A stretch of DNA of 46,529 bases from Candidatus Omnitrophota bacterium. Its GTDB lineage: Bacteria > Omnitrophota > Gorgyraeia > Tantalellales > Tantalellaceae. The notes under the pieces were generated by a model. The model was not told the DNA's origin, searched no databases, and was given only the letters and a program-made list of their open reading frames with translations. The position numbers and the translations under genes were made by a program. The number at the start of each line of letters is the position of its first letter. Position 1 is the stretch's first letter. The stretch covers positions 1 to 46,529 of the forward strand of contig JBDRBI010000131.1 in NCBI GenBank assembly GCA_043822885.1. Reading direction: 5' to 3'. Below are positions 94 to 43,723 of the stretch, in pieces.

Positions 94-120
94 TTAGCAC
101 TCCTCCATGAAGAGTGCTAA
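94..120. promoter_or_regulatory. CIRCE (HrcA operator) inverted repeat
   Basis: TTAGCACTC (94-102), N9, GAGTGCTAA (112-120) is a perfect match to the CIRCE consensus. It sits 9 nt downstream of the predicted -10 and upstream of groES. Confidence 0.9.
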
Positions 121-129
121 TGAAATGTC

Positions 130-157
130 ATTATAGAGAAAATCGCGTTAATGTCAA
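130..157 (-). promoter_or_regulatory. sigma70-type promoter of groES
   Basis: On the minus strand: TTGACA (157-152), 16 nt spacer, TATAAT (135-130). Both hexamers are consensus. Confidence 0.7.
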
Positions 158-200: not shown

Positions 201-392
201 GACGAGGAGAAAGACCTCCCTTCACAGTGACATTTTTTAACGCTTTTTTCTAACTTTTTTGAGGTGTTAAATGAACTCGTCCTCATTCTTTCTATAGGTG
301 TTCGTCCTCGAACAGCATTTAACAATATTCCTCAAAAAAGTTATAAAAAATCTAAAATGTCACAGATGTTCATTCCGGCCTTTCTCCTCGTC
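201..392. repeat. long-hairpin intergenic element, copy 1 (~190 nt; MITE-like or structured RNA)
   Basis: Outer arms GACGAGGAGAAAGACC (201-216) and GGCCTTTCTCCTCGTC (377-392). Mid arms GTGACATTTT / AAAATGTCAC. Conserved inner arms ...CTAACTTTTTTGAGGTGTTAAATGAACTCG and CAGCATTTAACAATATTCCTCAAAAAAGTTATAAAAAATCTAAAATG. Homologous to 31090-31276 and 40840-41111. Confidence 0.85.
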
Positions 393-3186: not shown

Positions 3187-3201
3187 CTTCTCTCCTTATC
3201 T

Positions 3202-3246
3202 AGTTCAGAGTTATGAGTTCGGAGTTCATAGTAAATAGTAACTGAG
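3202..3246. repeat. GAGTTNN heptamer array
   Basis: agttcagagttatgagttcggagttcatagtaaatagtaactgag. The 18-mer AGTTCAGAGTTATGAGTT recurs exactly at 5811-5828 and as its reverse complement at 7373-7390. The array abuts the SD of the 3007-3186 ORF. Confidence 0.85.
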
Positions 3247-3282
3247 AAAAAATATACCGCTTCTTACTTTGAGCCATTCACC

Positions 3283-3337
3283 GCCACAAGTGTATCTTTC
3301 CGCTTAGACGCGATGCGCTCCAATATCCACTTGTGCC
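3283..3337. repeat. internally deleted (mini) copy of the long-hairpin element
   Basis: tttccgctt..gacgc|gatgcgctccaatatcc aligns with the left and right ends of copy 2 (31105-31116 and 31249-31265) with the central ~135 nt missing. It has its own complementary outer arms CACAAGTG (3285-3292) and CACTTGTG (3328-3335). Confidence 0.6.
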
Positions 3338-3396
3338 GTTCCCCTCTGTACATAACACATCACACATTCCACATTACACAATATCAGTCACTTTCC

Positions 3397-3422
3397 GACT
3401 ATAGTCTATGGTCTATAGTCTC
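3397..3422. repeat. TATRGTC heptamer array directly after the hflC stop
   Basis: gactatagtctatggtctatagtctc, preceded by a degenerate core atatcagtcac (3381-3391). Confidence 0.8.
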
Positions 3423-3423
3423 T

Positions 3424-4359
3424 TCAGTCTAGATTTTTAATGTATTTATAATACTCCCCGTTCGTAGTAAGAACTATAGTCGTTCCGGAGTCTATTGTAT
3501 CCTTATATGTCTCCAAGGTCTTCATAAAAGAGTAGAACGCGGGATCTTTCCCGTATGATTCCGCATAAACAGCTATGGCCGCGGCATCCGCTTTTCCCCT
3601 GAGTCCCTGGGCTGTTTTATAAGCCTCGGAGGTTATAAGTTTCAGTTCTTTTTCCATCTGTCCTTCAACCTCGGCGCTTTTCCCCCTGCCTTCGGAGCGA
3701 TATAATTCCGCGGCTCTTTTACGTTCCGATATCATTCTCTCGTACACTTTCTTTCGTACATCCTCAACGTAATTTATACGTTTTATCCTGACATCCACGA
3801 GTTCTATCCCGTATTGGGGAACGATCTCTTTGGACCGCGTCAATATCTCGGTTTCCAATTCATGCCGCCCTACGGTTATCTTTTCTAAAGCCTCTTCCGC
3901 AAAAGCTATTATTCCGTCCCCTACCATGGTTTCCTCGAGGATACGGTTAGAGTCACGTATCGCTTCTACCAAAAGATGGCTTGTGATTATGTCTCTTGTA
4001 GCGGAATTTATCACATCATCCAGCCGGGCATGAGCGCCTCTTTCCGAACCCACTGATTCCAGAAATTTTAGCGCGTCCACTATGCGCCACCTTGCGGTGG
4101 TATCCACCCAAATGTACTTCTTATCTATGGTAGGGATCTGATTAGGGTCTCCGTCCCATTCCAAAAGACGTTTGTCAAAATAATGCGCCTGTTGTATGAA
4201 CGGCAATTTGATATGAAGACCCGCTTTTGTTATGGTCTGTCCTACAGGTCTCCCGAACTGTGTAATAACGGCTTGATTTGTTTCCGAAACTATATACACC
4301 GCTCCCATAACAAAAAACAGTGTAACCGCGATAGATGATATTTTGATCAAATTTTTCAT
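3424..4359 (-). CDS. hflC: protease modulator HflC (SPFH/band-7)
   Basis: N-terminal TM helix, SPFH domain and coiled-coil tail. The start overlaps the hflK stop by 1 nt. Confidence 0.85.
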   Translation of the reverse strand: MKNLIKISSIAVTLFFVMGAVYIVSETNQAVITQFGRPVGQTITKAGLHIKLPFIQQAHYFDKRLLEWDGDPNQIPTIDKKYIWVDTTARWRIVDALKFLESVGSERGAHARLDDVINSATRDIITSHLLVEAIRDSNRILEETMVGDGIIAFAEEALEKITVGRHELETEILTRSKEIVPQYGIELVDVRIKRINYVEDVRKKVYERMISERKRAAELYRSEGRGKSAEVEGQMEKELKLITSEAYKTAQGLRGKADAAAIAVYAESYGKDPAFYSFMKTLETYKDTIDSGTTIVLTTNGEYYKYIKNLD

Positions 4360-5440: not shown

Positions 5441-6036
5441 AAGATAGACGAAGAGCAGATCAGGAGAAATAGAAGAGAGCGGAAGGAGTCACCAGGTCAC
5501 CTGTCACCAAGTCATCAGAAAAAGAAGGTAGAGGATAGAGGGTAGAAAATGTAGAGGCGGTTCGTGAACCGCCCTTAAAGAGTCACCCCCGGCTGCCTTC
5601 TTTTGGGACATATGGCCGGGGCAGGCAAGTCACCAGTTGATAGAGCTTAGAAGTTAGAAGCGAGAGGCGAGAAGGGAGAGCGTGGAAGATGTCACCAAGT
5701 CATCAGGTCACCAGTCACCAGTTGATAGAGCTTAGAAGTTAGAAGCGAGAAGACAGGAAAAACAAAAGTAAAAAGTAAAAAGTTCGGATTGATTGACTGA
5801 TATGCTCTTGAGTTCAGAGTTATGAGTTGGGTTTTTAATTTTGTCTTCTGGATTTCTACCTTCTATCTTCTATCCTCTATCTTCCAACTCTGACTCCTGT
5901 AAATAAGCTGGTACCCAGGTAACCTGCTTGTCCCGAGCGAAGCCGAGGGGGTAACTAGGTGACCTGGTGACTAGGTGACTGGTGACTAGGTGACTTTTTC
6001 TACTTTCTCGCTTCTACTCTCTCGCTTCTATCTTCC
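5441..6036. repeat. composite mosaic of heptamer arrays in mirror order (~600 nt imperfect palindrome)
   Basis: Left half: purine TAGAAG-type arrays, GTCACCN x4 (5488-5518), AGAAGGT/AGAGGAT (5523-5557), further GTCACC and TAGAAG blocks, AAAAGTA x3 (5763-5783), core GATTGACTGAT (5791-5801), GAGTTNN (5807-5833). Right half holds the complements in reverse order: CTTCTAY arrays (5845-5885), GGTGAC x5 (5950-5994), TTCTAC/TTCTCG (5998-6036). Confidence 0.9.
5582..5634 (+). repeat. GC stem-loop module, copy 1
   Basis: GTCACCCCCGGCTGCCTTCTTTTGGGACATATGGCCGGGGCAGGCAAGTCACC. Homologous to 44416-44465 (same strand) and 41192-41244 (reverse complement). Stem CCCCGGC / GCCGGGG. Confidence 0.75.
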
Positions 6037-6056
6037 ATAAGCCCTAAATACACTAT

Positions 6057-6108: not shown

Positions 6109-6185
6109 GGCGGGGTAGCTCAGATGGTTAGAGCGCACGGCTCATACCCGTGTTGTCGACGGTTCGATCCCGTCCCCCGCTACCA
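6109..6185 (+). tRNA. tRNA with anticodon CAT (Met; could be lysidine-modified Ile2)
   Basis: Hand-folded cloverleaf: acceptor GGCGGGG/CCCCGCT (G1.U72), D arm GCTC-AGATGGTTA-GAGC, anticodon arm CACGG-CTCATAC-CCGTG, variable TTGTC, T arm GACGG-TTCGATC-CCGTC, encoded CCA. It lacks the initiator signature of three G-C pairs at the base of the anticodon stem. Confidence 0.9.
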
Positions 6186-6267: not shown

Positions 6268-6361
6268 TCTTGACGCTTTTCCCTTCATTTTGTTTCACAA
6301 AATTCCGGGGTCGCTGTCACCCCCTTCCCATTGGTGTTATGAATTATGCTATCTGTGCTAT

Positions 6362-6399
6362 CAAAGGAAAAGGAGGAGGTATATCCTCCTTTTCCTTTG
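6362..6399. repeat. 15-bp perfect-stem hairpin
   Basis: CAAAGGAAAAGGAGG (6362-6376), 8-nt loop, CCTCCTTTTCCTTTG (6385-6399). Confidence 0.6.
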
Positions 6400-6444
6400 G
6401 AACCATATCCTCCTCAATTTGTGTCGCTTCGCGACGTGTTTGAA

Positions 6445-7276: not shown

Positions 7277-7390
7277 AGTTGGGAGTTAGGAGTTCGGAGA
7301 AATAATACAAAATGGTCACTTAACTCATAACTCCGAACTCAACAGCACATCAGTCAATCACTCCGAACTCCTAACTCATAACTCTGAACT
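7277..7390. repeat. GAGTTNN-family hairpin with core motif
   Basis: Left arm agttgggagttaggagttcggag (7277-7299) matches the reverse complement of the right arm (7361-7390) at 21 of 23 positions. Core ATCAGTCAATC at 7349-7359 touches the right arm. Confidence 0.9.
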
Positions 7391-11548: not shown

Positions 11549-11592
11549 AGTCTATAGTCTATGGTCTATTGCCTATTGTCTATGGTCGTCTC
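11549..11592. repeat. TATRGTC-family heptamer array abutting the metF stop
   Basis: agtctatagtctatggtctattgcctattgtctatggtcgtctc. No complementary partner in this gap. Confidence 0.8.
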
Positions 11593-17445: not shown

Positions 17446-17458
17446 AAAAACTCCTGTC

Positions 17459-17642
17459 GAGTTGATAGTTCATAGTTGATAGTTCATAGTTTAAAAAAAG
17501 CTTACCCGGGTTCATACTATAAAGCTATAAACTTAACGGTGCACCAGTCAATCTTCGAACCTTTTAACCTTTAAACTTTTTAACTTTTAAACCGTTCCGG
17601 CATCGGTCAATCACTACGAACTATGAAATATCAACTATTAAC
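17459..17642. repeat. ATAGTTN-family hairpin between rpsP and trmD, two core motifs
   Basis: Arms gagttgatagttcatagttgatagttcatagtt (17459-17491) and cactacgaactatgaaatatcaactattaac (17612-17642). Cores ACCAGTCAATC (17543-17553) and ATCGGTCAATC (17602-17612). CTTTTAA-type array at 17560-17593. Confidence 0.9.
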
Positions 17643-17643
17643 C

Positions 17644-17883
17644 CTATATTTCCAGTCTCTTTATTATGCTCTTCACCGTCTCAGAAGGTTTAGCGCCATT
17701 TTTTAACCAATACTCAACCCTTTCTCTGTCAAGAGCAACCTGGTCTTTTCCTTTTTTAGGATCATAATGACCCAATTCCTCTAATGCTCTTCCGTCACGT
17801 TTAGTTGATTTTGTCATCGCAACTATACGATAAAAAGGCTTCTTTTTCGTTCCGAACACTTTGAGCCTTAAAACAACCGCCAT
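17644..17883 (-). CDS. rpsP: 30S ribosomal protein S16
   Basis: MAVVLRLKVFGTKKKPFYRIV is the canonical S16 N-terminus. 79 aa. Confidence 0.92.
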   Translation of the reverse strand: MAVVLRLKVFGTKKKPFYRIVAMTKSTKRDGRALEELGHYDPKKGKDQVALDRERVEYWLKNGAKPSETVKSIIKRLEI

Positions 17884-17900
17884 CCTATTCCTCCTTGTTT

Positions 17901-18023
17901 AGTTAATAGTTCATAGTTGATAGTTCATAGTTAAAAAAAGCGCGCCAAGTATCAAGCATCAACCCCATGTAAAACTTAGCATATCGGTCGATCACTATGA
18001 ACTATCCACTATCCACTACCTAC
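17901..18023. repeat. ATAGTTN-family hairpin between murA and rpsP
   Basis: Arms agttaatagttcatagttgatagttcatagtt (17901-17932) and cactatgaactatccactatccactacctac (17993-18023). Core variant ATCGGTCGATC at 17983-17993. Paralogous to 17459-17642, including the TTAAAAAAAGC that follows the left arm. Confidence 0.9.
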
Positions 18024-23256: not shown

Positions 23257-23340
23257 TCATTTGTCCTTATGTAATTAGTTATTCTCTCTTCTCCTTTTCA
23301 AAAGAGGGTAGAAACTAGATCTCAAGGGTGTAAACTATAA

Positions 23341-23389
23341 TCTACCTTCTATTTTCTACCTTCTAACTTCTCTCTTCTCGCTTCTCTCC
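23341..23389. repeat. pyrimidine CTTCTAN/CTTCTCG heptamer array after the polA stop
   Basis: tctaccttctattttctaccttctaacttctctcttctcgcttctctcc. A partial purine partner agagggtagaaactaga lies at about 23302-23318. Confidence 0.85.
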
Positions 23390-23390
23390 G

Positions 23391-25979
23391 CTACTTAGCT
23401 TCCAGCCAGTTCTCGCCGGATCCTATGTCCACTTTTAGCGGCACTTTTAACGTCATAACATTTTCCATTATTACCCTGATCGCGTCCGTTATTTCTTTGT
23501 GATGTTTTCTCGGCACATCAAAGACGAGCTCGTCATGTACTTGTATTATAAGTTTCACGTCTTGTTCTTTTAGTTTTTTATAACAATCTATCATAGCGAG
23601 CTTTATGATATCCGCCGCGGATCCTTGCACTGCGGTATTAACAGCGGCTCTTTCGGCGAACTTTCTTACATGGTCATTTTCGCTTTTAATTTCGGGAATA
23701 TATCTTCGTCTTTTGAGCAGTGTTGAAACAAATCCATTCTTACGCGTTTCGTTTATTATCCGTTCGATAAATTCCAAGGTCTCTCCATATTCGGAAAAAT
23801 ACGCGTCAATAAATTTTTGCGCCTCTTCTATCGTGATATCAAGCTCTTTTGCCAACCCAAAAGCGCTTATACCGTAGATTATTCCGAAATTGACCGTTTT
23901 AGCGGCGCTCCTTTGCTCGTCAGTCACTTCTTTGAGCGAACGATCGAATATCTTTCCGGCCGTAACGCGGTGTACATCTTCTCCGTTGTTAAATGCTTTT
24001 ATCAATTTTTTATCTTCCGCAAGATGCGCCAGGATCCTCAATTCTACCTGAGAATAATCGGCAGCGATCAATATCCTGTCCGCGCCGCCTGAAATAAAAG
24101 CGCGCCGTATCTCTTTCCCCAAGGCCGTTTTTATGGGAATATTCTGAAGATTCGGATCGCTAGAAGAGAGCCTCCCTGTCGCGGTTACAGCTTGATTGAA
24201 CTTAGCGAATATCTTTCCGTCATTGGCCGAAGCCAGACCCAGTAAAGTATCATAATATCCGGTCTTTAACTTGTTCATCTCGCGATAGTCGATCAATTTT
24301 ACCGGCAGAGCGTGCATTGAAGCCAGGCGTCTCAGGACCGATTCATCCGTTGAGCGGCCAGTTTTAGTCTTTTTTATTACCGGTAAAGAAAGTTTATCGT
24401 AAAGAATGATCTGCATCTGTTTAGGGGAATTGATATTGAATTCTTCCCCCGCAAGTTCATAAATTTCATGCGTTACCTTTTCCAGATCTTTCTCTATTTT
24501 TTTAGAACCTTTTTTCAAGGCTTCGCTATCTACATCCACTCCATGAGATTCCATATCCGCAAGCACTTTTATTAACGGCATTTCAACTTTTTCAAAGAGA
24601 CCATTAAGTTCTTTTTCCTTTAAGAGCGGCTCGAGAAACCCATAAATGTCTTTTGTGAAATGACTTTTGATACATGTTTTTTTTACAACATCGGCATCAG
24701 AAGTCATATTTGTTCCTAAACTCCGCTGAAGGATCGACCTGAAATCATAACTCCCGGCAGAGGGATCCAGCAAATAATCCGCTACCATTATGTCAAAGAT
24801 CTTTCCCTTTACCTCTATACCTTCCCTTCTAAAAAAAAGTATTTGTCTTTTTATATCCCATCCGACTTTTTCAATGCTATCATCCTCAAATATGTTTTTT
24901 AACTCTTTTCCGAATGCGTCTCTTTCTTTCTCTGCCTTTAAAGGGATAAAAGCGGTCTTTTCCCCGATCGTCAGGGATACCCCCTTTACTCCGTCTTTTT
25001 CCTCCTCCGGAACCGTGGAGAAAAAGATCTTCTCGTTCTTTGTTCTTCCCTTTAATGCTTTTTTGACATCTTCTTCCGTCTTGCATTCCGTGTAGCCGAT
25101 CTCGCTTCTATCGACAGTCGCTATCTCACCTAAAAGTTTTTTAAACTCGAACTTCTTATAGAGTTCCGCAAGTCTTTCACTGTCTGGCTCCCCTAAAAAT
25201 GTTTTATCAAGATCTATATCTATCGGCACCTTACTATCCAGAACTACCAGTTCTTTACTTAATCTCGCCATATCCTCTTCCGCTACAAGTTTGTCCTTTG
25301 TGGAACCCGCGGTCATGTTTTCCATATTAGCGTATATGTTGTCTATACTACCGTACTCATTTATAAGCTTCGCGGCACCGACCTTTCCTATGCCTTTGAC
25401 TCCCGGGATATTGTCGCTCGAGTCTCCCGTAAGAGCCATAAGCTCGGTTATCTTATCCGGAGTAACTCCGTATTTTTCTTCGACTTCTTTTTTTTTGTAC
25501 GTTTTCTCTCCGAAAGAGCTAAGACTCAAAACGCTCACATCCTTATCCACAAGCTGCAGCGCATCTTTATCGCTGGTTACTATAACTACATTCATCCCAT
25601 TTTCTTTTGCTTTCTCCGTTAATGTAGCTATGATGTCATCCGCTTCATATCCTGAAAGCTGACAAATAGTTATGTTCATCGCTTCGACTACCTCTTTTAT
25701 CTTAGAGATCTGCTCAGCCAGATCATCCGGCATCGGTTTGCGATGTATCTTATATTCGTCGTATTTTTTATGGCGCACTGTCGGACCCGGCATATCAAAG
25801 ACCATCACCAATCTTTGAGGATCATGTTCTTTGCGCAATTTTCGTATAATATTGATGAATCCATATATGGCATTTGTGGGTTCCCCCTTTGATGTGGCGA
25901 GATCCCGTATCGCATAATACGCGCGGTAACAAAAGGCGTTCCCGTCGATCAAATAGATATTTTCGTCTTTTTTGCTCAT
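23391..25979 (-). CDS. polA: DNA polymerase I
   Basis: 5' nuclease domain, a central 3'-5' exo-like domain, and polymerase motifs A (DYSQVELRILAH) and C (QVHDELVF). 862 aa. Confidence 0.93.
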   Translation of the reverse strand: MSKKDENIYLIDGNAFCYRAYYAIRDLATSKGEPTNAIYGFINIIRKLRKEHDPQRLVMVFDMPGPTVRHKKYDEYKIHRKPMPDDLAEQISKIKEVVEAMNITICQLSGYEADDIIATLTEKAKENGMNVVIVTSDKDALQLVDKDVSVLSLSSFGEKTYKKKEVEEKYGVTPDKITELMALTGDSSDNIPGVKGIGKVGAAKLINEYGSIDNIYANMENMTAGSTKDKLVAEEDMARLSKELVVLDSKVPIDIDLDKTFLGEPDSERLAELYKKFEFKKLLGEIATVDRSEIGYTECKTEEDVKKALKGRTKNEKIFFSTVPEEEKDGVKGVSLTIGEKTAFIPLKAEKERDAFGKELKNIFEDDSIEKVGWDIKRQILFFRREGIEVKGKIFDIMVADYLLDPSAGSYDFRSILQRSLGTNMTSDADVVKKTCIKSHFTKDIYGFLEPLLKEKELNGLFEKVEMPLIKVLADMESHGVDVDSEALKKGSKKIEKDLEKVTHEIYELAGEEFNINSPKQMQIILYDKLSLPVIKKTKTGRSTDESVLRRLASMHALPVKLIDYREMNKLKTGYYDTLLGLASANDGKIFAKFNQAVTATGRLSSSDPNLQNIPIKTALGKEIRRAFISGGADRILIAADYSQVELRILAHLAEDKKLIKAFNNGEDVHRVTAGKIFDRSLKEVTDEQRSAAKTVNFGIIYGISAFGLAKELDITIEEAQKFIDAYFSEYGETLEFIERIINETRKNGFVSTLLKRRRYIPEIKSENDHVRKFAERAAVNTAVQGSAADIIKLAMIDCYKKLKEQDVKLIIQVHDELVFDVPRKHHKEITDAIRVIMENVMTLKVPLKVDIGSGENWLEAK

Positions 25980-27848: not shown

Positions 27849-27861
27849 TTTCCCTCCTTAA

Positions 27862-27950
27862 TTAGTTCATGGTTGATAGTTCGTAGTTCGTAGCATATTG
27901 ACCGATACTCTATGTTTTAACTACAAACTATCAACTATCAACTATGAACT
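27862..27950. repeat. ATAGTTN-family hairpin between tsaD and mgtC; right arm runs into the tsaD stop
   Basis: From AGTTCAT onward, the left arm (ttagttcatggttgatagttcgtagttcgtag, 27862-27893) matches the reverse complement of the right arm (27919-27950) at 26 of 30 positions. Core variant ATTGACCGAT at 27897-27906. The last 6 codons of tsaD (EFIVDS*) are repeat sequence. Confidence 0.9.
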
Positions 27951-28966: not shown

Positions 28967-29758
28967 CTATTTTTCTTTATCATCTGCAAGATCGGATAAT
29001 TTAACGAACTTCACACCCATTTTTTCCATTTCCGGAACTATATTTTTTAATGCCTCAAAAGTTACCATGCGATCGTGCCCTATTCCAATGGCGCTATTGC
29101 GGTTATTTTTAAGAGCCACAAGGTTGATCAAACATTGTTCTATTTTTTTTGTCTCCCGAGAATTATCCAAAAAAATGTCTCTTTGAAAGCAGGGAACATC
29201 TTTCTCTTCGGCAATTTTCCCGCATACGGAATCGGGTGAGGTAAAAGAATCCAGAAAGAACATATTTCGTTTCTTTAATTCTTCAAAAATAATCGTCATT
29301 GTACGCGCATCTCCGGTCGCTTTTGACCCCATATGATTGGATATTCCTTTGGCAAAGGGGACCGAATCGAGAGCCCTCCCTATTATATCGCGGATCTCAC
29401 CGTCTTCCATGCCCACCAAAACCGTATCGACTTCAAGGGGAACATTGCCACCTTCCGGCTGCATAGGAAGATGTAATATCACTTCTATACCTTTCTCCTC
29501 GGCGAATCTTGATACTGTTTTTGAATATGGAGTATTAGGTAAAACCGCTATTGTTACGGGGACAGTTAGATCTCCCAGAGCACTTAAATTAATTTTGTTA
29601 TATCCAAAATCATCCAGAACGATCGCTACCTTGAATATTTCTTTTATTTCTAAAACTTCTTCTTTAACAACTTCCTTTTTCTCCGAAAAAATGCTATGAA
29701 AAATAAAAAGGATCGCTATCCCTAAAGCTAAATAAAACAGTATTCTCCGCTGTCTCAT
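28967..29758 (-). CDS. divergent polysaccharide deacetylase family protein (YibQ-like)
   Basis: Signal/TM anchor. VAIVLDDFGYN and HLPMQP motifs typical of the DUF610 / divergent polysaccharide deacetylase family. Confidence 0.7.
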   Translation of the reverse strand: MRQRRILFYLALGIAILFIFHSIFSEKKEVVKEEVLEIKEIFKVAIVLDDFGYNKINLSALGDLTVPVTIAVLPNTPYSKTVSRFAEEKGIEVILHLPMQPEGGNVPLEVDTVLVGMEDGEIRDIIGRALDSVPFAKGISNHMGSKATGDARTMTIIFEELKKRNMFFLDSFTSPDSVCGKIAEEKDVPCFQRDIFLDNSRETKKIEQCLINLVALKNNRNSAIGIGHDRMVTFEALKNIVPEMEKMGVKFVKLSDLADDKEK

Positions 29759-31044
29759 TTATCTCCCTGATGAAAGATCCTGCATTCGTCAAAAACGCTT
29801 ACCCCCTTGATTATATTTACCGCTGCCTGGATCTGGCTGTCCCCTTCCCATTTGAATTTCTTCTCTTTCTTTTTTGGGTCTTCCTTATCCTCTTTCTCGA
29901 TCCGGTCAAAAACATCCGTTTCCGTCTCCTCCTTTTCAGATACGCTCTTCCTCTCCACTCTGACATCGGGTTCTATCCCCTTATCCATGAGATTTTTTCC
30001 GCTCGGAGTATAATATGCGGCGGTAGTAAGCCTGAGCGCGGAATCATCTTTAAGAGGAATAACCGTCTGCACTGATCCTTTTCCATAAGTAACTTCGCCT
30101 ATGACCAATCCCCGTTTGTTATCTTTTATCGCTCCTGCCAATATTTCCGCGGCGCTGGCAGACCCTCCGTCGGCTATAACGATTATCCCCATTCCCCTTG
30201 TTAAAGCTTCTTTTTTAGCTCGAAACTCTATCCTTTTCTCCGGGTTTCTTCCTTCCGTATAGACAATAAGCTCGCCCTTTTCCAGGAAATGTTCGGAAGT
30301 ATTAACGGCTGAATCTAAAAGGCCTCCGGGATTGTTCCTCAGATCCACTATTATACTTTTCGCGCCTTTCTCCTTTAATTCACTGATAGCCTTTTCCATA
30401 TCTTTGGCTGTTCTTTCCTGAAATTCAACAAGTCTTACATACCCGATATTTTCATCTATCATCTCTATTTCTTTCACGCTTTTTATTTTGATAATTCCCC
30501 TCTCTATCGTGAACGCTTTAACTTTGCCGTCTTCTTCCCGAATGACCGTAATGGTCACTTTTGTTCCGGGTTCACCTCTCAACTTTTTTATAGCTTCATC
30601 GATGGTTATACCCCTGGTTATTTCATCCTCGATCTTAACTATCATGTCTCCGGCCTTTATTCCGACTTTAAAAGCCGGTGTATCGTCTATCGGAGCTATG
30701 ACTTTCAGCACCCCATCCCGCATACCGATCTCCATCCCAAGCCCGCCGAATTGTCCTTTTGTCTCTTCTTGTATCTCCTTAAAAGTGTCCGGGTCCATGA
30801 ATTGGCTGTATCCGTCGAGAGTGCTTATCATTCCCTTGATAGCCCCGTATATCAGATCTTTCGGGTTGATCGGCTTAACATAATCCGCGCTGATCAAGGT
30901 AATAGAATCGGCAAAAAGCTGTATTTCCTTAAAAAGTTCTTTCCCGTCAAAGTCCATCTCGCTTACCGCGCTCACAGCCCAGACACCTGTTGTAATGACA
31001 GCGAAAATAAGAATTATTCCCAGTATGTTCTTTTTACTCTTCAT
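29755..31044 (-). CDS. ctp: S41 family carboxy-terminal processing peptidase
   Basis: Signal anchor, PDZ domain (GIKAGDMIVKI) and S41 catalytic region (GGSASAAEILAGA..., K in TYGKGSVQ). 429 aa. Confidence 0.88.
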   Translation of the reverse strand: MKSKKNILGIILIFAVITTGVWAVSAVSEMDFDGKELFKEIQLFADSITLISADYVKPINPKDLIYGAIKGMISTLDGYSQFMDPDTFKEIQEETKGQFGGLGMEIGMRDGVLKVIAPIDDTPAFKVGIKAGDMIVKIEDEITRGITIDEAIKKLRGEPGTKVTITVIREEDGKVKAFTIERGIIKIKSVKEIEMIDENIGYVRLVEFQERTAKDMEKAISELKEKGAKSIIVDLRNNPGGLLDSAVNTSEHFLEKGELIVYTEGRNPEKRIEFRAKKEALTRGMGIIVIADGGSASAAEILAGAIKDNKRGLVIGEVTYGKGSVQTVIPLKDDSALRLTTAAYYTPSGKNLMDKGIEPDVRVERKSVSEKEETETDVFDRIEKEDKEDPKKKEKKFKWEGDSQIQAAVNIIKGVSVFDECRIFHQGDK

Positions 31045-31089
31045 AATTTCATCCTTTTTGTATACTAGACAAATGATTTTTAGCCAAAT

Positions 31090-31276
31090 GGCGGAAGGGA
31101 ATATTTCCGCTTGTGCGCAATTTCTTAACGCATTTTTTCAAACTTTTTAGGGTGTTAAATGAACTCGCCCTCACTCGTTTTTATCGGTGTTCGGGCTCAA
31201 ACAGCATTTAACAATATTCCCTAAAAAGTTGTAAAAAATGCTAAAATTGCGATGCGCTCCAATGTCCCCTTCCGCC
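31090..31276. repeat. long-hairpin intergenic element, copy 2
   Basis: Outer arms GGCGGAAGGG (31090-31099) and CCCCTTCCGCC (31266-31276). Mid arms GCGCAATTT / AAATTGCG. Inner arms TTTTTAGGGTGTTAAATGAACTCG and CAGCATTTAACAATATTCCCTAAAAAG. Confidence 0.85.
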
Positions 31277-31320
31277 CTCCACCCTTTAATAAGAATTACC
31301 TTTACAATACTAAATTCATT

Positions 31321-32760
31321 TTATTTTTCCATTTTTTTGAGAAGCATTTCTCTCGCAATTTTGGGGTTCGCCTTTCCCTTTGTCTTTTTCATCACCTGTC
31401 CGACCATAAAACTTAAAGCGTTGATCTTTCCTTTTTTATAATCTTCTACCGATCTTTCGTTCTCGGAAAGAACACTGTCTACAACTTCATCCAGAACACT
31501 TTCGTCGGATACCTGCTCTAACCCCTTTTCTTTAACGATCTCCCCGGGATCTTTCCCTTTGTCTATATGTTCTCCCAGCACTTCCTTTGCCGCAAGACCG
31601 CTTACCACGCCTTCTTTGGCCATTTTAATGATTATCGCGAGATTCTTTGGCGACAATCCCAGCTGATCGATCTTTTTTCCACGCTCTTTCGCGTGCATCA
31701 TAACTTCTGTTTTTATCCAATTGCACACATCATTCGGGATATTATGTTCTTCAACTGTCTTTTCAAAAAAATCCGCTATTCTTTTTTCCGAGATCAAAAA
31801 TTCCGTGTCATTATCGCTGAGCTTGAACGTGTCTTTTAACCGCTTTGTTCTTTCAGACGGGTCTTCCGGCATAGATCTTTTTATTTCCTCTATCAATCCC
31901 TTTTCGATCTCAAAAGGAACAAGATCAGGTTCGGAAAAATATCTGTAATCATGCGCCTCTTCTTTAATCCTCATCGATTCTGTAACGCTTCTTTCTTCGT
32001 TCCAAAGCCTGGTTTCCTGCACGATCTTTTTGCCTGATCCTAATATCTCCTCCTGCCTATCCTCTTCAAAAATAAGAGCGTCTCTTACCGCCTTGAAAGA
32101 ATTAAGGTTCTTTATCTCTACCTTAGTTCCCAATTTTTTTTCACCTTTTTTTCTGAGAGAAAGGTTCGCATCGCATCTCAGGCTTCCCTCTTCCATATTG
32201 CAATCGGACACATCAAGATACGCTATGACTCTTTTTATCATAACCAAATAATTGTAGGCTTCTTCGCTGGAAGTCATCTCAGGCTCTGAGACTATCTCAA
32301 GAAGAGGTGTGCCGGTACGGTTTAGATCCACATAACTAAAGGCTTTCACCGGATCATGTAAAAGTTTTCCAGCGTCTTCTTCCATATGCACCCGTGTTAT
32401 ACCGATAGTTTTCTCCTGATCATTCATTTTAATTGATATTTTACCGTCATAGGCTATAGGCATGTCATACTGACTGATCTGATAATTTTTAGGAAGATCG
32501 GGATAATAATAGTTCTTTCGGTCAAATTTTACGGTCTTCTGTATATCGCAATCCAGGGCTAATGCGACCTTGATCGCTCTTTTGAACACTTCTTCATTAA
32601 GCACGGGAAGTACCCCCGGAAGCCCCAGACACACAGGACAGACCTGTGTATTAGGTTCCTGTCCGAAAACCGTGGAACAGCCGCAGAATATCTTCGTCCG
32701 GGTGGACAACTGTACATGGACTTCCAGTCCGATCACGGTCTCATACTTATTCTCCGGCAT
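31321..32760 (-). CDS. gatB: Asp-tRNA(Asn)/Glu-tRNA(Gln) amidotransferase subunit B
   Basis: YETVIGLEVHVQL N-terminus and a C-terminal YqeY-like domain. The start is placed at MPENKYE (32760) because of a GGAGAG SD 5 nt upstream; the ORF-track start at 32802 is possible. Confidence 0.92.
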   Translation of the reverse strand: MPENKYETVIGLEVHVQLSTRTKIFCGCSTVFGQEPNTQVCPVCLGLPGVLPVLNEEVFKRAIKVALALDCDIQKTVKFDRKNYYYPDLPKNYQISQYDMPIAYDGKISIKMNDQEKTIGITRVHMEEDAGKLLHDPVKAFSYVDLNRTGTPLLEIVSEPEMTSSEEAYNYLVMIKRVIAYLDVSDCNMEEGSLRCDANLSLRKKGEKKLGTKVEIKNLNSFKAVRDALIFEEDRQEEILGSGKKIVQETRLWNEERSVTESMRIKEEAHDYRYFSEPDLVPFEIEKGLIEEIKRSMPEDPSERTKRLKDTFKLSDNDTEFLISEKRIADFFEKTVEEHNIPNDVCNWIKTEVMMHAKERGKKIDQLGLSPKNLAIIIKMAKEGVVSGLAAKEVLGEHIDKGKDPGEIVKEKGLEQVSDESVLDEVVDSVLSENERSVEDYKKGKINALSFMVGQVMKKTKGKANPKIAREMLLKKMEK

Positions 32761-34207
32761 TGAATCTCTCCGATAATTTGTGGTGTTCCGTATTTTGCTC
32801 AAACGCGTGAGCGGCTCTCATGAGAACCTCTTCAGCGAAGGGCTCCGCCATAAGCTGAAGACCTACAGGCATTCCGTCTTTTCCCGGACCGCAAGGCACG
32901 GATATCGCGGGCAGACCGGCAAGATTTGCCGGTATAGTGCATATATCCGACAGATACATTTTAAGCGGGTCATCCATCTTTTCTCCGATCTTGAACGCGG
33001 TCGTCGGAGATGTCGGAGTTAGCAGACAATCACATTCCTTGAAAGCTTCTCTGAAATCTTCGGATATTTTTGTTCGCACTTTTTGGGCCTTTAAATAATA
33101 AGCTTCATAATACCCGCTGCTTAGAACATATGTACCCAATAAAATGCGCCGTTTTGCTTCTTGTCCGAAGCCTTCATTCCTGGTAGATGTGTACATGTCG
33201 ATTATGCTCTTTTCTCCTTTACCACGGTGCCCGTAATGAACTCCGTCATATCGCGCAAGATTAGAACTGGCCTCGGCCGGACCGATAATATAGTAGCAGC
33301 TAACGGCGTATTTTGTATGGGGCAGAGAGACCTCCGTTATCCGGGCTCCCAGTTTTCTAAAAACCTCAACAGCCTCTTCGATCCTCTGACGCACGTCTTC
33401 ATTGATGCCCATTGTGAAATATTCTTTAGGCAGACCGATCCTGAGTCCCTTTATGTCCCCGGTTAAACTTTCCGTATATCTTGGAACTTCTTTTTTAACG
33501 GAGGTGGAATCGTTTATGTCATGTCCGGAGATCACTTCTAATATCGCGGCGCAATCGGCGACATTACGCGTTATCGGCCCTATCTGATCTAAGCTGGAAG
33601 CAAAAGCGACAAGACCATATCTTGACACTCTCCCGTATGTAGGCTTAAATCCCACCACCCCGCACATAGAGGCCGGCTGCCGTATAGATCCGCCTGTATC
33701 AGACCCAAGAGAAGCTATAACTTCGCCGGCGGCTACAGCCGCTGCCGGCCCTCCGCTGGATCCACCGGGAATACGTGAAGTATCCCACGGATTTTTAGTA
33801 GGTCCGAAAAAAGACGTTTCACAGGAAGACCCGAAAGCAAACTCATCCATATTGAGCCCCGGAAACAGTACGGCTCCTTCGTTCCTCAGCTTATCTATAA
33901 CTGTCGCATTGTACGGAGGTTTAAAGTTTTCCAACATACGTGAACCGCAAGCCGTAATAGTGCCCTTTATGCATATATTGTCTTTTACCCCTATCGGCAC
34001 TCCGCTTAAGGCAAGATCACGTTTAAAGGCCTCGATGGGACCGGCGGAAGAAACTATATCATCGCTATTTATTCGTATAAACGCGTTTATGCCTTTATCA
34101 ATACGGGCGGCGCGTTCTGCCAGTTGACGGATAATATCTAAAGGCGTTTCCCCGCTTTCCGCGGCCCATTTTTTAAAGTTTTCTATGCTTGATATATAGT
34201 GTCCCAT
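32747..34207 (-). CDS. gatA: Asp-tRNA(Asn)/Glu-tRNA(Gln) amidotransferase subunit A
   Basis: Amidase signature GGSSGG. 486 aa. Order in transcription direction is gatC-gatA-gatB. Confidence 0.93.
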   Translation of the reverse strand: MGHYISSIENFKKWAAESGETPLDIIRQLAERAARIDKGINAFIRINSDDIVSSAGPIEAFKRDLALSGVPIGVKDNICIKGTITACGSRMLENFKPPYNATVIDKLRNEGAVLFPGLNMDEFAFGSSCETSFFGPTKNPWDTSRIPGGSSGGPAAAVAAGEVIASLGSDTGGSIRQPASMCGVVGFKPTYGRVSRYGLVAFASSLDQIGPITRNVADCAAILEVISGHDINDSTSVKKEVPRYTESLTGDIKGLRIGLPKEYFTMGINEDVRQRIEEAVEVFRKLGARITEVSLPHTKYAVSCYYIIGPAEASSNLARYDGVHYGHRGKGEKSIIDMYTSTRNEGFGQEAKRRILLGTYVLSSGYYEAYYLKAQKVRTKISEDFREAFKECDCLLTPTSPTTAFKIGEKMDDPLKMYLSDICTIPANLAGLPAISVPCGPGKDGMPVGLQLMAEPFAEEVLMRAAHAFEQNTEHHKLSERFNAGE

Positions 34208-34546: not shown

Positions 34547-35000
34547 ATAAAGTCAATCCAGACAGATCTAAGATCGAAGGCCGCAGACCATAGACTATAG
34601 ACACTTGAGAATAAAAGTTAGAGGCGAGAAGATAGAAGCGAGATAAAAGTCACCAGTCACCTAGTCACCAAGTCACCAGTTGACAGGGCACCAGGTAATA
34701 GAAGATAAAGGCGAGAAATTAGACATTGACTATAGACTATAGACCATTGAACATAGACAGAGATTGACTGATGCGGGAATAAGAGTCATAGAGTCAGGTT
34801 GGACCGATGCGGGAGTCGAGTCAAAGAGTCAGTGGCAAAATGTTGACTCTAGAGAGCGAAGCGAACGATGACTCTAATGAGCGAAGCGAATGATGACTTT
34901 ATGACTCTCTCTATCCTCTAACTTATGTATGCAGACTGGTGACTAGGTGACTGGTGACCTGGTGACTCTTTATTCCTTCTACCTTCTCATTTCTCGTTTC
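34547..35000. repeat. composite heptamer mosaic between rsmA and gatC (~450 nt)
   Basis: AGTCAATCCAGAC (34551-34563). GACCATA/GACTATA arrays. TAGAAG-type arrays at 34617-34648 and 34699-34725. GTCACCN array 34649-34698. Cores GATTGACTGAT (34762-34772) and TTGGACCGAT (34799-34808), each followed by GCGGGA. GAGTCNN arrays. 25-nt tandem repeat 34854-34878 / 34879-34902. GGTGAC array 34935-34968. The CTTCT array runs into the rsmA stop. Confidence 0.9.
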
Positions 35001-35838
35001 TATGAAAAAAAACTTCGTCCGCCAGGCGCGCGTAATCCGAAAGCGCTATGTCTTCCGCGCGAAGAGACGGCGACATATCGCATCTGTTGAACAATGTCTC
35101 CCAAATGTTTTTATCTATCCCTAAAAAACTCACGTCGGAGAGCGGGTTTACCGCCTTTTTCCTTCTCTGAGAAAACGCCTTCCGGATTATACTGAACATG
35201 AGGTCTTCATCCCGGACTTTTACGCTCGGTTCATCCAAAATTTCGAGTTTCAAAAGCGCCGAAGAAACTTTTGGGCTCGGGTAAAAAGAATTATTCTTTA
35301 TTCTGAAAAGTTTATCAGGTTTTGTAAAATATCTCACAAAACAGCTTAAAGAGCCGTATGTTTTAGATCCGGGTGAGGCTATGATCCTGTCGACCACTTC
35401 TTCCTGCATGACAATATAGGCGCTTTTTATAAGCTTTTTATTTTCGATTATGCGTTCTACGAGAGGTGTTGAGATATAATAAGGTATATTTCCGAAAAGG
35501 ATGGAAGTTTTCCCTTTCGGCATAGATCCTTTTATATCAAACTCGAGTATGTCTCCCGTAACAAGTTTTATGTTTTCCTCCTCAAAGAAAGGTCTCATTA
35601 TGCGGCAGATCAAAGCATCTTTCTCGACAGCCACGATCTCTCTGCATCTTTTAGCCAGCTCAAAAGTCATTACCCCGAAACCCGGACCGACCTCAAGAAG
35701 AAACTCATCTCCGTTAAGATGCAATTCCGATAATATTTTATTGCGGATATTTTTGTCTATAAGAAAGTTTTGTCCTAGGCGTTTATTGGGGCGGAAATCA
35801 TTTTTTCCCCAGATAACTTTCAGATCTTTCAGATCCAT
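34987..35838 (-). CDS. rsmA: 16S rRNA (adenine1518/1519-N6)-dimethyltransferase
   Basis: LGQNFL motif and SAM-binding EVGPGFG. 283 aa. Confidence 0.92.
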   Translation of the reverse strand: MDLKDLKVIWGKNDFRPNKRLGQNFLIDKNIRNKILSELHLNGDEFLLEVGPGFGVMTFELAKRCREIVAVEKDALICRIMRPFFEEENIKLVTGDILEFDIKGSMPKGKTSILFGNIPYYISTPLVERIIENKKLIKSAYIVMQEEVVDRIIASPGSKTYGSLSCFVRYFTKPDKLFRIKNNSFYPSPKVSSALLKLEILDEPSVKVRDEDLMFSIIRKAFSQRRKKAVNPLSDVSFLGIDKNIWETLFNRCDMSPSLRAEDIALSDYARLADEVFFHRNEK

Positions 35839-38837: not shown

Positions 38838-40739
38838 TTACTTTTTGTTAACACTCTTTTTGGCCAGCATAATCTCCGTTTTTAGCAGCCGACAATAGAG
38901 GTCAAACCCTATTTGATCGATAAATCCGCTTTGTTCCATGCCCAGGATATTTCCCGCGCCCCGCATTTCCAGGTCTCTCATGGCTATTTTGAACCCGGAA
39001 CCCAGTTCCTGATACTTTTTTATAGCTTCTAAACGCTTACTCACTTCACGTGTTAGGGACGAAAACTCCCGAACCACTAAGTACGCAAAAGCCTTTCGGT
39101 CAAATCGGCCTATCCTTCCTCTCAGCTGATAAAGATCCGCCAATCCGAATTTATGCGCATCCTCTATTATCATAGTGTTTGCATTGGGAATATCTATCCC
39201 GGATTCAATAATAGTAGTGCACACCAGGACATCTATTTCTCCCTTAATGAATTTTAACATTGTCGCCTCAAGTGTTCTGGCGCTCATTTGTCCATGTCCG
39301 ACCATTATCCTCGCTTCCGGAACGAGCCGGCTCACGCGAGCCGCGATTTTATCTATCGTCTCGACCCTATTATGCACATAATAGACCTGTCCCTTTCTTC
39401 TTATTTCCCTTTCGATCGCCCCTTTTATGATATCTCCGTCATACTCAATAACTTCGGTATTAATGGGCATCCTTTCCGTTGGAGGCGTCTCTATCAAAGA
39501 AATATCTCTTCCACCCATGAGAGCTAAATACAATGTCCTTGGGATCGGTGTCGCGCTGAGAGTAAGTATATCCACATTTGTCCTGACCTTTTTTATCTTT
39601 TCTTTGTGCTTGACCCCGAATCTTTGCTCTTCATCCACGATAAGAAGCCCCAGGTCACAAAATTCTATATCATCCGAAAGCAGTCTATGAGTTCCTATGA
39701 CAATATCTATTTTTCCTTCTTTCAGTTCTTTGATAATGCCTTTTTGTTCGGTATAAGACCTGAAGCGGTTAAGCATTTCTATTTTTACGGGAAACTCTTT
39801 TAACCTTGTAGTAAAGGTTTCCGCGTGCTGCTCGGCCAAGATCGTTGTTGGAACAAGAAACGCTACCTGCTTGGAATCCATTACGGCTTTGAACGCCGCT
39901 CTGAGCGCTATTTCGGTTTTTCCGTATCCGACATCTCCGCACAAAAGACGATCCATAGGACGGATATGTTCCATATCCTTTTTAACTTCTTCGGTAACCT
40001 TTTCCTGATCCGGAGTTTCCTTATACGGGAAATTATCTTCCACTTCTTTCTGCCAATCAGTGTCTTTGCTGAACCCGAATCCCGGAGTGCTTTCTCTTTT
40101 TGCCTGTATTTCCAAAATTTCACGCACAGTACGCGCAATGCCTTTTGAAGCTCTATTTTTTGTCTCGCTCCATCCCTTTCCTTTTAAACTGTTGAGTTCC
40201 GGATGTTTTCTGTTGAAAGAGACATATCTTTGCAGCTTGTGAAGATCTGTACTCTCCGTATAAAGCCTATCCCCTCCCTTATACTCTATGACAAAATAGT
40301 CCTGGAGCTTTCCTTTACGTCTGTGATGCTGTCTGCCGAGATATCTGCCGATACCATAATCTATGTGAACAACAAAATCTCCGGGCTCTATATCCACAAA
40401 GGAATCAATAGGCTGCTCTCCCATAGGATCAAGTTCTTTTTGGGCTTTTTTGCGCCGCAAGGCCTCGATCGGAAGTATAATAACGCCTTTATGTTCGGTA
40501 ATGGTCTTAAACGATACGAGGTCCACGCTCTTAATAGAACGGACAATACCTTCTATGATCTCTATGCGTACCGGATACTCAAAGGTCACAGGATAGACCG
40601 TAAGGATCTCCCCCGCAATAGAATAATCGCCGCAAACCGACACTTTACGGCATCGGGTATAACCGTGTCTATCGAGGAAGGATACGGTCAGCTCCGGATC
40701 TATTTTTTCGTTAAAATATATTTTGAGTGAATCGAACAT
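38838..40739 (-). CDS. mfd: transcription-repair coupling factor Mfd, truncated form (no UvrB-homology module, no C-terminal domain 7)
   Basis: CarD/TRCF RNAP-interaction domain (GDFVVHIDYGIGRYLG). SF2 translocase motifs GDVGYGKTE, DEEQRFG, QLRGRIGR. Only 633 aa, and the ORF begins inside the region equivalent to domain 1b/3. Confidence 0.85.
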   Translation of the reverse strand: MFDSLKIYFNEKIDPELTVSFLDRHGYTRCRKVSVCGDYSIAGEILTVYPVTFEYPVRIEIIEGIVRSIKSVDLVSFKTITEHKGVIILPIEALRRKKAQKELDPMGEQPIDSFVDIEPGDFVVHIDYGIGRYLGRQHHRRKGKLQDYFVIEYKGGDRLYTESTDLHKLQRYVSFNRKHPELNSLKGKGWSETKNRASKGIARTVREILEIQAKRESTPGFGFSKDTDWQKEVEDNFPYKETPDQEKVTEEVKKDMEHIRPMDRLLCGDVGYGKTEIALRAAFKAVMDSKQVAFLVPTTILAEQHAETFTTRLKEFPVKIEMLNRFRSYTEQKGIIKELKEGKIDIVIGTHRLLSDDIEFCDLGLLIVDEEQRFGVKHKEKIKKVRTNVDILTLSATPIPRTLYLALMGGRDISLIETPPTERMPINTEVIEYDGDIIKGAIEREIRRKGQVYYVHNRVETIDKIAARVSRLVPEARIMVGHGQMSARTLEATMLKFIKGEIDVLVCTTIIESGIDIPNANTMIIEDAHKFGLADLYQLRGRIGRFDRKAFAYLVVREFSSLTREVSKRLEAIKKYQELGSGFKIAMRDLEMRGAGNILGMEQSGFIDQIGFDLYCRLLKTEIMLAKKSVNKK

Positions 40740-40749
40740 GATTAGTAAA

Positions 40750-40815
40750 CAGTTTAAAAGTTTAAAAGTTTAAAGGTCTGGATTGACCGATGTGCAAATG
40801 TTATTGACCGTCAGT
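40750..40815. repeat. TTTAAAAG array plus core motif directly upstream of mfd
   Basis: cagtttaaaagtttaaaagtttaaagg (40750-40776), then GTCTGGATTGACCGATGTGC (40776-40795), then a second partial core ATTGACCGTC (40803-40812). Confidence 0.85.
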
Positions 40816-40839
40816 AAGTACGTCGAAATAATGCCAAAA

Positions 40840-41111
40840 GGCAGAAGACAAGGCCTTCCTTCACAAGTGGCATTTTTTTACGTTTTTTTTCTAACTTTTT
40901 AAAGGTGTTAAATGAACTCGCCATAAATAGAAGTTAGAAATTAGAGGATAGATGTTAGAGGAAAAGCGGCTCACTAATCTTGATCTATCTTCTAACTTCT
41001 CGCTTCTACCCTCTATATTTTCGGGCTCAGACAACATTTAACAATGATCCTTTAAAAAGTTATAAAAAAACTAAAATGCCACAATTGTTCCCTCAGGCCT
41101 TGTCTTATGCC
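40840..41111. repeat. long-hairpin intergenic element, copy 3, with a nested heptamer palindrome in its apex
   Basis: Outer arms GGCAGAAGACAAGGCC (40840-40855) and GGCCTTGTCTTATGCC (41096-41111). Mid arms GTGGCATTTT / AAAATGCCAC. Inner arms AAAGGTGTTAAATGAACTCG and CAACATTTAACAATGATCCTTTAAAAAG. About 95 nt of TAGAAG / CTTCTA arrays (about 40923-41019) replace the apex. Confidence 0.85.
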
Positions 41112-41191
41112 TTCCCGAATTTACTCCGTATATGATCAAACCTACCCGCACGGGCTGCTGCACCACCATCTAACATTTTTATTGAAACTCT

Positions 41192-41244
41192 GGTGAACGG
41201 CCTGCCCCCGTGCGTGTTTTCGAAGAAAACAACGGGAGGGGGGG
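41192..41244 (-). repeat. GC stem-loop module, copy 3 (reverse orientation)
   Basis: The reverse complement reads CCCCCCTCCCGTTGTTTTCTTCGAAAACACGCACGGGGGCAGGCCGTTCACC, which aligns with 44416-44465. Confidence 0.7.
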
Positions 41245-41273
41245 TGCCCCTTGGCTAGTAATCTTTATTTTTA

Positions 41274-43663: not shown

Positions 43664-43723
43664 ATTCATTCTCGGATGGTTAAGGTTTTAGGTAGAATTC
43701 AGATCGTAATCAGCTAGCCTGGT

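Follow-up and report, generated by a model that had tools for sequence, protein, structure and literature searches.

Small hairpin repeats, among them repetitive extragenic palindromic (REP) sequences, the REP doublets called REPINs and repeats resembling MITEs, the miniature transposable elements with inverted repeats, shape bacterial operons, and most work on them has dealt with a small number of cultivated phyla. REPINs are mobilised by a Y1 transposase, the RAYT or TnpA-REP protein. Compensatory changes between their two arms have been reported to be common (PMC3116915). Omnitrophota are a phylum known almost only from metagenomes, and we found no earlier description of a comparable repeat in the literature on Omnitrophota repeats. 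We describe here a long-hairpin element present in several copies on a complete contig of 46,529 nt (JBDRBI010000131.1), which we call the window, from a Candidatus Omnitrophota metagenome-assembled genome (MAG; GCA_043822885.1). The element stands for a family, not described before, of hairpin-forming and probably mobile bacterial repeats, whose known members all come from one Candidatus Omnitrophota clade. Its structure is kept while its sequence changes; this was the central claim of a first-pass annotation of the window, and it holds.

That annotation had placed three copies at 201-392, 31090-31276 and 40840-41111, and these are indeed homologous long hairpins, here named A, B and C, all on the plus strand. 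Copy A, a full hairpin, sits in the interval from the coaX stop (675) to the groES promoter (157-130), copy B lies in the 276-nt gatB-ctp spacer (31045-31320) and copy C in the 534-nt argS-mfd spacer (40740-41273). An invariant 17-mer, GGTGTTAAATGAACTCG, occurs exactly three times in the window, against about 0.15 occurrences expected with up to three mismatches, and no shuffled sequence reached three. The predicted structure of each of these copies is a single long hairpin of -66 to -104 kcal/mol, and none of 200 shuffled sequences was as stable (z-scores between -8.6 and -10.3, with -8.8 and -9.3 for A and -10.3 for C). Neither the choice of strand nor that of RNA or DNA parameters alters this result.

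Each copy of the family is an imperfect palindrome of about 190-300 nt with a fixed polarity. From the foot inward, it consists of an outer helix (10-20 bp), an internal loop, a helix ending in ATTTT/AAAAT and a 5-nt TTAAC bulge on the 5' arm; these are followed by two A/T-rich helices and a 5-nt bulge on the 3' arm and, toward the apex, by a helix TGTTAAATG/CATTTAACA, an internal loop AACTC/TCAAACA and an apical GCCC/GGGC helix with its loop. The unpaired motifs stand at 237-241 (TTAAC), 274-278 (AACTC) and 308-314 (TCGAACA) in copy A and at 31125-31129 (TTAAC), 31162-31166 (AACTC) and 31197-31203 (TCAAACA) in copy B. TTAAC, AACTC and TCAAACA are identical in copy B, in the copies of the Candidatus Omnitrophota MAG JBDRBG01 (GCA_043823005.1) and in the single copy of JBDRKO01 (GCA_043813915.1), found on its locus L034. 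Copy A varies only in its TCGAACA, and copy C, which has the architecture of A and is 86% identical to it in the paired core columns, carries TTTAC and TCAGACA. A covariance model of a 141-position core recovered all known copies with 123-171 bits on the forward strand and gave 28-56 bits on the reverse strand (143.5 vs 39 bits for copy A with model R1, 157 vs 46 bits for B, 123 bits forward for C). Since the forward strand scores three to four times as high as the reverse complement, the palindrome is asymmetric and an orientation can be assigned to each copy.

Conservation is highest in the apex-proximal core and the bulges, which are fixed, and lowest in the distal (outer) helices, which nevertheless remain complementary. 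The outer helix of copy A comprises 16 bp (GACGAGGAGAAAGACC/GGCCTTTCTCCTCGTC), and the corresponding strand differs from copy to copy, with GGCGGAAGGG in B, GGCAGAAGACAAGGCC in C, ATGGCACAAATGGCC in JBDRBG01, CCGTAAAACCGTATAAAGTTC in the L034 copy and AGCAGAGGCGAGACCTGTT in a fourth window copy, D. The internal loop beside this helix is nearly the same in A and C (TCCCTTCACA vs TTCCTTCACAA). We also considered that the outer stems might be older, independent hairpins hit by insertions of the core; the homology of the internal loops that lie outside the core in A, C, B and the JBDRBG01 copies (TCCCTTCACA, TTCCTTCACAA, TTTTCGTTCAG and TTTCCGCTTG) ruled this out for them, and for D and the L034 copy the outer stems may still be pre-existing hairpins.

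Two copies of the window depart from the simple form. Copy C is longer than the others because a heptamer-repeat hairpin is nested in its apical loop (40925-41020, without strand), where TAGAAGT-type 7-nt tandem units make up the left arm and their complement the right arm; relative to the model, the cmsearch alignment places an insert of about 75 nt there, and Tandem Repeats Finder reports an array at 40935-40962. Copy D, at about 441-660 on the minus strand, adjoins copy A in inverted orientation. The common orientation claimed by the first-pass annotation thus stands for A, B and C, and D lies on the opposite strand. Copy D is divergent and GC-rich (53%), with outer arms at 448-483 and 619-654 and an extra small hairpin inserted at about 505-545; its fold is a long hairpin of -105 kcal/mol (z-score -5.2). 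The covariance model matches it only weakly, with 21-23 bits and an E-value of about 0.01 at minus-strand positions 474-628. This weak match is nonetheless a genuine divergent member of the family: ATTTCTTAACG (from 622 downward), GAACTCGCCCTC (581-570), TCGGGCTCAAACAG (563-550) and CTAAAAT (486-480) follow in order, the 12-mer and the 14-mer among them occur elsewhere in the window only in copy B, and TTAAC, AACTC and TCAAACA persist although the helices are almost wholly different. D and the L034 copy, the most divergent of all, have kept the architecture and the unpaired motifs with nearly all helices rewritten. In total, four copies (A, B, C and D) were detected in the 46.5 kb of the window. 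A 35-nt stretch at 3310-3344, in the spacer downstream of hflC and among heptamer arrays, shows 80% identity to 31249-31283 (GCGATGCGCTCCAAT...), where copy B has its right end. It may be the remnant of a fifth copy, but it receives no score from either covariance model.

Covariation was measured on nine forward copies and 43 core pairs; the nine rows represent about five independent lineages, and the alignment was fitted to the model. In this set, 96.9% of the cells were standard pairs. Double-sided changes affected 14 of the 43 pairs (24 cells), compared with 4.0±1.5 pairs in shuffled alignments, none of 500 of which reached the observed value, and with 0-2 in slid controls. When the 3' arms were exchanged for those of other copies, the mean duplex energy fell from -67.5 kcal/mol for native pairs to -36.4 kcal/mol. 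The outer helix, which lies outside the model, behaves in the same way between A and C: nine of its 16 positions differ, and at seven of these both partners have been replaced with pairing retained. The three covarying stem segments described by the first-pass annotation were correctly identified and are statistically supported, and its preference for selection on a folded RNA or single-stranded DNA (ssDNA) over plain repeat decay is supported as well, the covariation being far above both controls and the chimeric arms pairing poorly. The pattern suggests that the fold itself is needed for the spread of the element.

The type of pairing bears on the nature of the folded strand. No G·U pair occurred among 386 core cells, and no pair had changed on one side alone. 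A strand-specific excess of G·U pairs, which would mark an RNA strand, was tested for and is absent, as a census of the whole arms gave 358 Watson-Crick pairs with six wobbles on one strand and eight on the other. By our own tally the double changes comprise 10 transversions and 8 transitions, the two types being about equally common. Because there is essentially no G·U pairing and no strand asymmetry, a DNA-level or strand-neutral substrate fits better than a selected RNA. In the young JBDRBG01 copies, about 8-9 single-sided changes are uncompensated, versus 1-2 compensated ones, so that complementarity is not restored instantly by copying from arm to arm; it arises in the longer run, as would be expected if descendants are left only by lineages that have kept the ability to fold.

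When 185,579 genomes, one per species, were scanned for an exact gapped pattern, true matches came from one MAG only, JBDRBG01, the other seven loci being chance matches. This MAG holds at least five copies, 90-95% identical over about 300 nt, adjoining unrelated genes (AbiEii, a DUF4143 ATPase, glycosidase/HPr, a helicase, UPF0047 and ctp). The model search suggested by the first-pass annotation, besides recovering the known copies, added D and the JBDRKO01 copy, which lies at 5850-5995 of L034 in the ksgA-gatC spacer and scores 79 bits, or 104 bits with a second model. That second model, which includes the L034 copy, revealed no new member in the 238 kb of window and related loci, and a filter-free search of the window with the model returned only generic hairpins below E 0.01. 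Scans of the JGI metagenomes (18 loci, none in the family) and, with a looser pattern, of the IMG/VR viral sequences (one chance match) yielded no member, and blastn against plasmid and phage collections gave no match. As the first-pass annotation had judged by eye, the element belongs to no recognisable RNA family: in gathering mode, Rfam reported only a tRNA at 6109-6182 over the whole window, and in a permissive search of copies A/D and B the best hit was a plant miRNA-precursor model with 25.7 bits, against a gathering score of 119. The copies nearest to B are those of JBDRBG01, with 94% identity over the paired core columns, while the ctp proteins of the two hosts are only 58% identical; B being closer to the JBDRBG01 copies than to A or C of its own genome, subfamilies cross genome boundaries.

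JBDRBG01 also contains a REP-like repeat of about 30 nt, TTTGCGAGG-N-AGCGAC-GCGGCAATC, in both orientations and often in tandem (L002 489-518, 679-709, 2308-2338, 2373-2403 and 2828-2859; L003 5989-6020; L011 1777-1808; L012 3403-3431; L039 302-370 and 10738-10769). One such unit always stands directly 5' of the long-hairpin element in this MAG, where it may belong to a composite unit or be the insertion target; neither the window nor the other relatives contain the repeat.

The comparison of orthologous spacers shows that the copies are insertions. The relatives share the gene orders argS-mfd-surA-pdxA-ksgA-gatCAB-ctp and birA-coaX-groES, and apart from the spacers their synteny is the same. 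The gatB-ctp spacer, 276 nt long in the window, measures 11 nt in Ca. Aadella gelida, 3 nt in JBDRKO01, 5 nt in L036, 10 nt in JBARQV01, 0 nt in L044 and 2 nt in L045, and the argS-mfd spacer 534 nt in the window vs 62, 1 and 3 nt in L031, L037 and L045. Between coaX and groES, the 636 nt of the window correspond to 129-174 nt in L041, L042 and L043, where the spacer holds a promoter and a CIRCE operator and nothing more. All three window sites are therefore empty in three to six syntenic relatives, as the check proposed by the first-pass annotation was meant to reveal, and the copies have been inserted into otherwise very short spacers between co-directional housekeeping genes.

Orientation with respect to these genes varies. 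The first-pass annotation rightly placed the copies between co-directional genes, but all of the genes lie on the minus strand, so A, B and C are antisense to coaX/groES, gatB/ctp and argS/mfd. By the forward strand of the element, these three copies are antisense and six others (D, the L034 copy and four JBDRBG01 copies) are sense; upstream of ctp, a copy occurs in opposite orientations in the window and in JBDRBG01. Copy A is moreover located upstream of the groES promoter and thus outside the transcript driven from it, and a promoter and terminator scan found neither a sigma-70-like promoter nor a terminator in or beside the elements. The co-transcribed functional RNA at fixed operon positions that the first-pass annotation had implied is thus contradicted by the empty sites, the varying orientation and the position of copy A.

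We consider the element to be a non-autonomous, gene-less mobile hairpin repeat of REPIN/MITE-like type whose folded single strand is the recognised substrate, a reading to which we give a probability of roughly 0.55. The element would propagate as a folded single strand, in the simplest case ssDNA, by analogy with REPINs and elements of the IS200/IS605 type, and a trans-acting enzyme encoded elsewhere would recognise this intermediate by its shape and a few conserved unpaired motifs. If only lineages that still fold can copy themselves, compensated helices would survive while recent copies decay with uncompensated mismatches. Selection for foldability would then act on the propagation of the element itself, an argument already made for REPINs, and any effect on flanking mRNAs, through a hairpin in a 3' untranslated region or an inter-cistronic spacer, would be a by-product.

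Several points weigh against this reading. No shared direct word of 6 nt or more was found at the hairpin foot of A, B, C, D or the L034 copy, in agreement with the first-pass annotation, which had seen no target-site duplication; an imperfect direct repeat of 14-15 nt lies 22 nt outside copy B on both sides and has no counterpart at other copies. Conserved terminal motifs were likewise found in none of these five copies. A transposase, RAYT or insertion sequence (IS) partner was found nowhere in about 240 kb around the copies. Mobility is deduced from filled and empty orthologous sites between species, not from variants segregating in one population. In the window, the well-preserved copies A, B and C all have the same orientation, a possible hint of constraint, although three out of three would arise by chance in one case out of four. 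The absence of G·U pairs could partly be explained by AT-rich helices and the small sample, and the whole data set amounts to about ten copies and about six independent lineages, from a census that used one exact pattern per collection.

The element could instead be a cis-acting structured RNA, transcribed together with its neighbours and kept for the sake of the host mRNA, where it might stabilise 3' ends, be processed by RNase III or serve between cistrons as a partial terminator or insulator. Enterobacterial ERIC and Neisseria Correia elements have been reported to act as cis-RNA modules. All copies occupy transcribed-looking spacers between co-directional genes, the RNA folds are very stable on both strands, a functional RNA is classically recognised by covariation combined with conserved loops, and the three copies first noticed have one orientation. 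Against this, three to six close relatives possess these operons with the sites empty, which makes the element dispensable to the host at these positions, and the ratio of 3 antisense to 6 sense copies despite a clear conserved polarity means that the transcribed RNA differs between copies. The lack of G·U pairs and strand asymmetry, of a promoter and of a terminator-like tail, and the position of copy A outside the groES transcript, speak in the same direction. Empty sites, free orientation and missing wobble pairs thus make a cis-RNA less likely as the primary explanation, and we regard it as unlikely in that role; a host function as mRNA stabiliser or processing site may still exist as a secondary effect.

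A bolder proposal, tentative and to our mind rather unlikely, is a transposon specified by structure, in which the hairpin foot, and no terminal sequence, would delimit the unit and the folded single strand would be moved by a class of enzyme so far unconnected with substrates of this kind, reading only the TTAAC bulge and the AACTC/TCAAACA loop. In a variant of this proposal, the mobile entity would be a structured RNA copied back into DNA.

The element might also be an ordinary MITE, that is, an IS deletion derivative moved in trans by a DDE transposase through conserved terminal inverted repeats and generating target-site duplications. The element is small, AT-rich, intergenic and multi-copy, lacks an open reading frame (ORF), forms a stem-loop and has filled and empty sites. 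Such traits are general features of MITEs (PMC10969869). The terminal helices are, on the contrary, its least conserved part and the conserved part lies near the apex; direct repeats flank none of the five examined copies, no transposase is encoded near any copy in the window and about 190 kb of related loci, and there is no similarity to plasmid or phage records. The combination of terminal inverted repeats, target-site duplication and transposase partner, by which the first-pass annotation proposed to recognise an ordinary MITE, was not found at the copies examined. With variable termini and no target duplication, the element fails the classical MITE tests, and we hold this origin to be improbable.

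A purely mutational explanation, in which quasi-palindrome template switching or gene conversion within the element copies one arm onto the other without any structural selection, appears more doubtful still. Quasipalindrome mutagenesis is a mechanism known from Escherichia coli. It would account for strictly Watson-Crick helices without wobble intermediates and for transversion-type double changes (10) being about as common as transition-type ones (8), in a genome full of other long palindromic arrays. Arm copying would, however, erase the asymmetric TTAAC bulge, the 5-nt bulge of the 3' arm and the AACTC/TCAAACA loop, all of which are kept in three genomes, and the mostly uncompensated mismatches of the young JBDRBG01 copies indicate that homogenisation is not fast. 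The preserved asymmetric bulges and the mismatched young copies thus make homogenisation alone unlikely. Independently transcribed small RNA genes, either 6S-like rod-shaped regulators or antisense RNAs against the 3' end of the upstream gene, would suit the rod-like structure of about 190 nt with internal loops and the three antisense copies, but with no sigma-70-like promoter or terminator at the elements, no Rfam match above noise, and copy number and position varying among relatives, they are very improbable.

On the reverse strand, A, B and C each open a short Lys-rich ORF starting in the apical loop, at 131-325, 31049-31174 and 40811-40924 on the minus strand. The 64-aa ORF that the first-pass annotation had noted at 131-325, as interrupted in the other copies, is the one of copy A. 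The starting pattern M-R-(T/A)-S-S-F-N-T..K.L.K..KK was also read in JBDRBG01 copies. A conserved micro-ORF was rejected, since beyond roughly 18 codons the frames no longer agree and another frame is used in copy D; nucleotide conservation accounts for the return of these first codons in B, C and the copies of JBDRBG01, and we judge the ORF to be a by-product of it. The view that the element has no conserved ORF is thus upheld.

Many intergenic spacers of the window contain tandem units of 7 nt (sometimes 8 nt) arranged as long inverted repeats, each spacer being foldable into a hairpin. Such arrays lie at 3197-3424, 5480-6040, 7277-7383, 11549-11591, 17455-18018, 23339-23391, 27859-27950, 34598-35003, 43717-43789 and 44478-44741, with unit families TAGAAGN/GAGAAGC, AGTTCAT/AGTTGAT, GGTGACT and AGTCTAT. 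The relatives carry arrays of the same kind, with different units, at orthologous or other spacers (for instance L031 867-928 and L034 about 6270-6420). Intergenic heptamer repeats have been reported to be abundant in Beggiatoaceae and cyanobacteria (PMC4679880); for Omnitrophota, no literature report of heptamer repeats was found. Under the bolder proposal of a transposon specified by structure, these hairpins, which occur in the same spacers as the element and nested in copy C, could be products of the same machinery. If so, this Omnitrophota clade would be a natural system for a new hairpin-based DNA mobility.

Every credible gene of the window is carried by the minus strand, and GC and AT skew of the plus strand are negative throughout. 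The gene names of the first-pass annotation were borne out by NCBIfam matches, with coaX at 675-1427, ctp at 29755-31044, gatB at 31321-32802, mfd at 38838-40739 and argS at 41274-43004, all on the minus strand, on which groES also starts, at 38. The groES promoter is a perfect sigma-70 promoter, TTGACA-16-TATAAT, running from 157 to 130 on the minus strand, and the CIRCE operator TTAGCACTC-N9-GAGTGCTAA lies at 94-120, between promoter and gene; this control region (94-157, minus strand) is kept in three relatives. Mfd is short in the window (633 aa) and the NCBIfam mfd model is matched only from position 289 on. Since the Mfd proteins of relatives are equally short (627-638 aa), this is a lineage trait and not a truncation by copy C. 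The remainder of the argS-mfd spacer (41112-41273 and 40740-40839) holds further structures, a GC-rich hairpin with a terminator-like tail directly 3' of argS (about 41237-41251) and, immediately upstream of mfd (40746-40774), an array of TTTAAAC/TAAAAGTT in tandem.

Among known systems, attC sites of integrons and the forked attP(+) hairpin of CTX-phi may resemble the element in that a folded strand is read by shape and a few extrahelical or unpaired bases, the stem sequence being free. The attC boxes are ordered 5'-RYYYAAC...GTTRRRY-3'. The words of the element have the reverse order, 5'-GTTAAAT...ATTTAAC-3', and stand near the apex, not at the foot; an attC identity is rejected on this box order, and the element furthermore lacks cassette ORFs or an array and occupies many loci, not one attI or dif site. 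A likeness to a dif/XerD arm (TGTTAAAT) was considered and dropped, the match being 8 nt of AT-rich sequence and the copies not lying at a single terminus site. Hairpin repeats of organelles, such as the sponge mitochondrial RHE, are also short, invade spacers, nest in one another and have neither coding capacity nor a known mobilising enzyme (PMC2800124). They differ in host domain and in their much shorter units, and they show no homology to the element.

Correia/NEMIS of Neisseria, ERIC/IRU of Enterobacteria and Yersinia, RUP/BOX of pneumococcus and QMITE of Coxiella share with the element their size, an intergenic position between co-transcribed genes, long RNA hairpins if transcribed, filled and empty sites and either orientation. 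The termini of the element differ between copies and show no detectable duplication; in these families, by contrast, the terminal inverted repeats are conserved and a defined target duplication is usual. For Correia elements it is TA. The direct repeats of QMITE2 measure 7-9 bp (PMC10969869).

REPINs are among the closest known systems. They too are gene-less, intergenic, dispersed repeats of about 100-200 nt that form one long hairpin in ssDNA or RNA, lack classical terminal inverted repeats and target-site duplications, and persist and diversify as populations inside lineages, and the long hairpin of the element shares their compensatory arm changes. REPIN systems carry a single-copy RAYT (Y1/HUH) gene, usually flanked by repeats, and none was found in the window and the related loci read; the element has no GTAG-type REP motif, and its copy number seems low (four in 46.5 kb, and 0-1 per about 40 kb in relatives). 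The layout also differs, since in REPINs the ends (REP 16-mers) are invariant and the inner spacer covaries, while in the element the apex-proximal core and bulges are invariant and the distal helices covary; with its variable ends and conserved core, it does not fit the REPIN plan. Strong helix covariation alone is no proof of a host-functional RNA, because mobile hairpins can give the same signal, and pipelines that discover noncoding RNAs by covariation should check for empty sites, orientation and wobble content. If a mobilising enzyme does read the fold, the family would offer a compact natural test case for structure-specific DNA recognition. Its conservation pattern, with a fixed apex-proximal core and bulges, free but complementary distal helices and no ends defined by sequence, is close to the reverse of that of both MITEs and REPINs.

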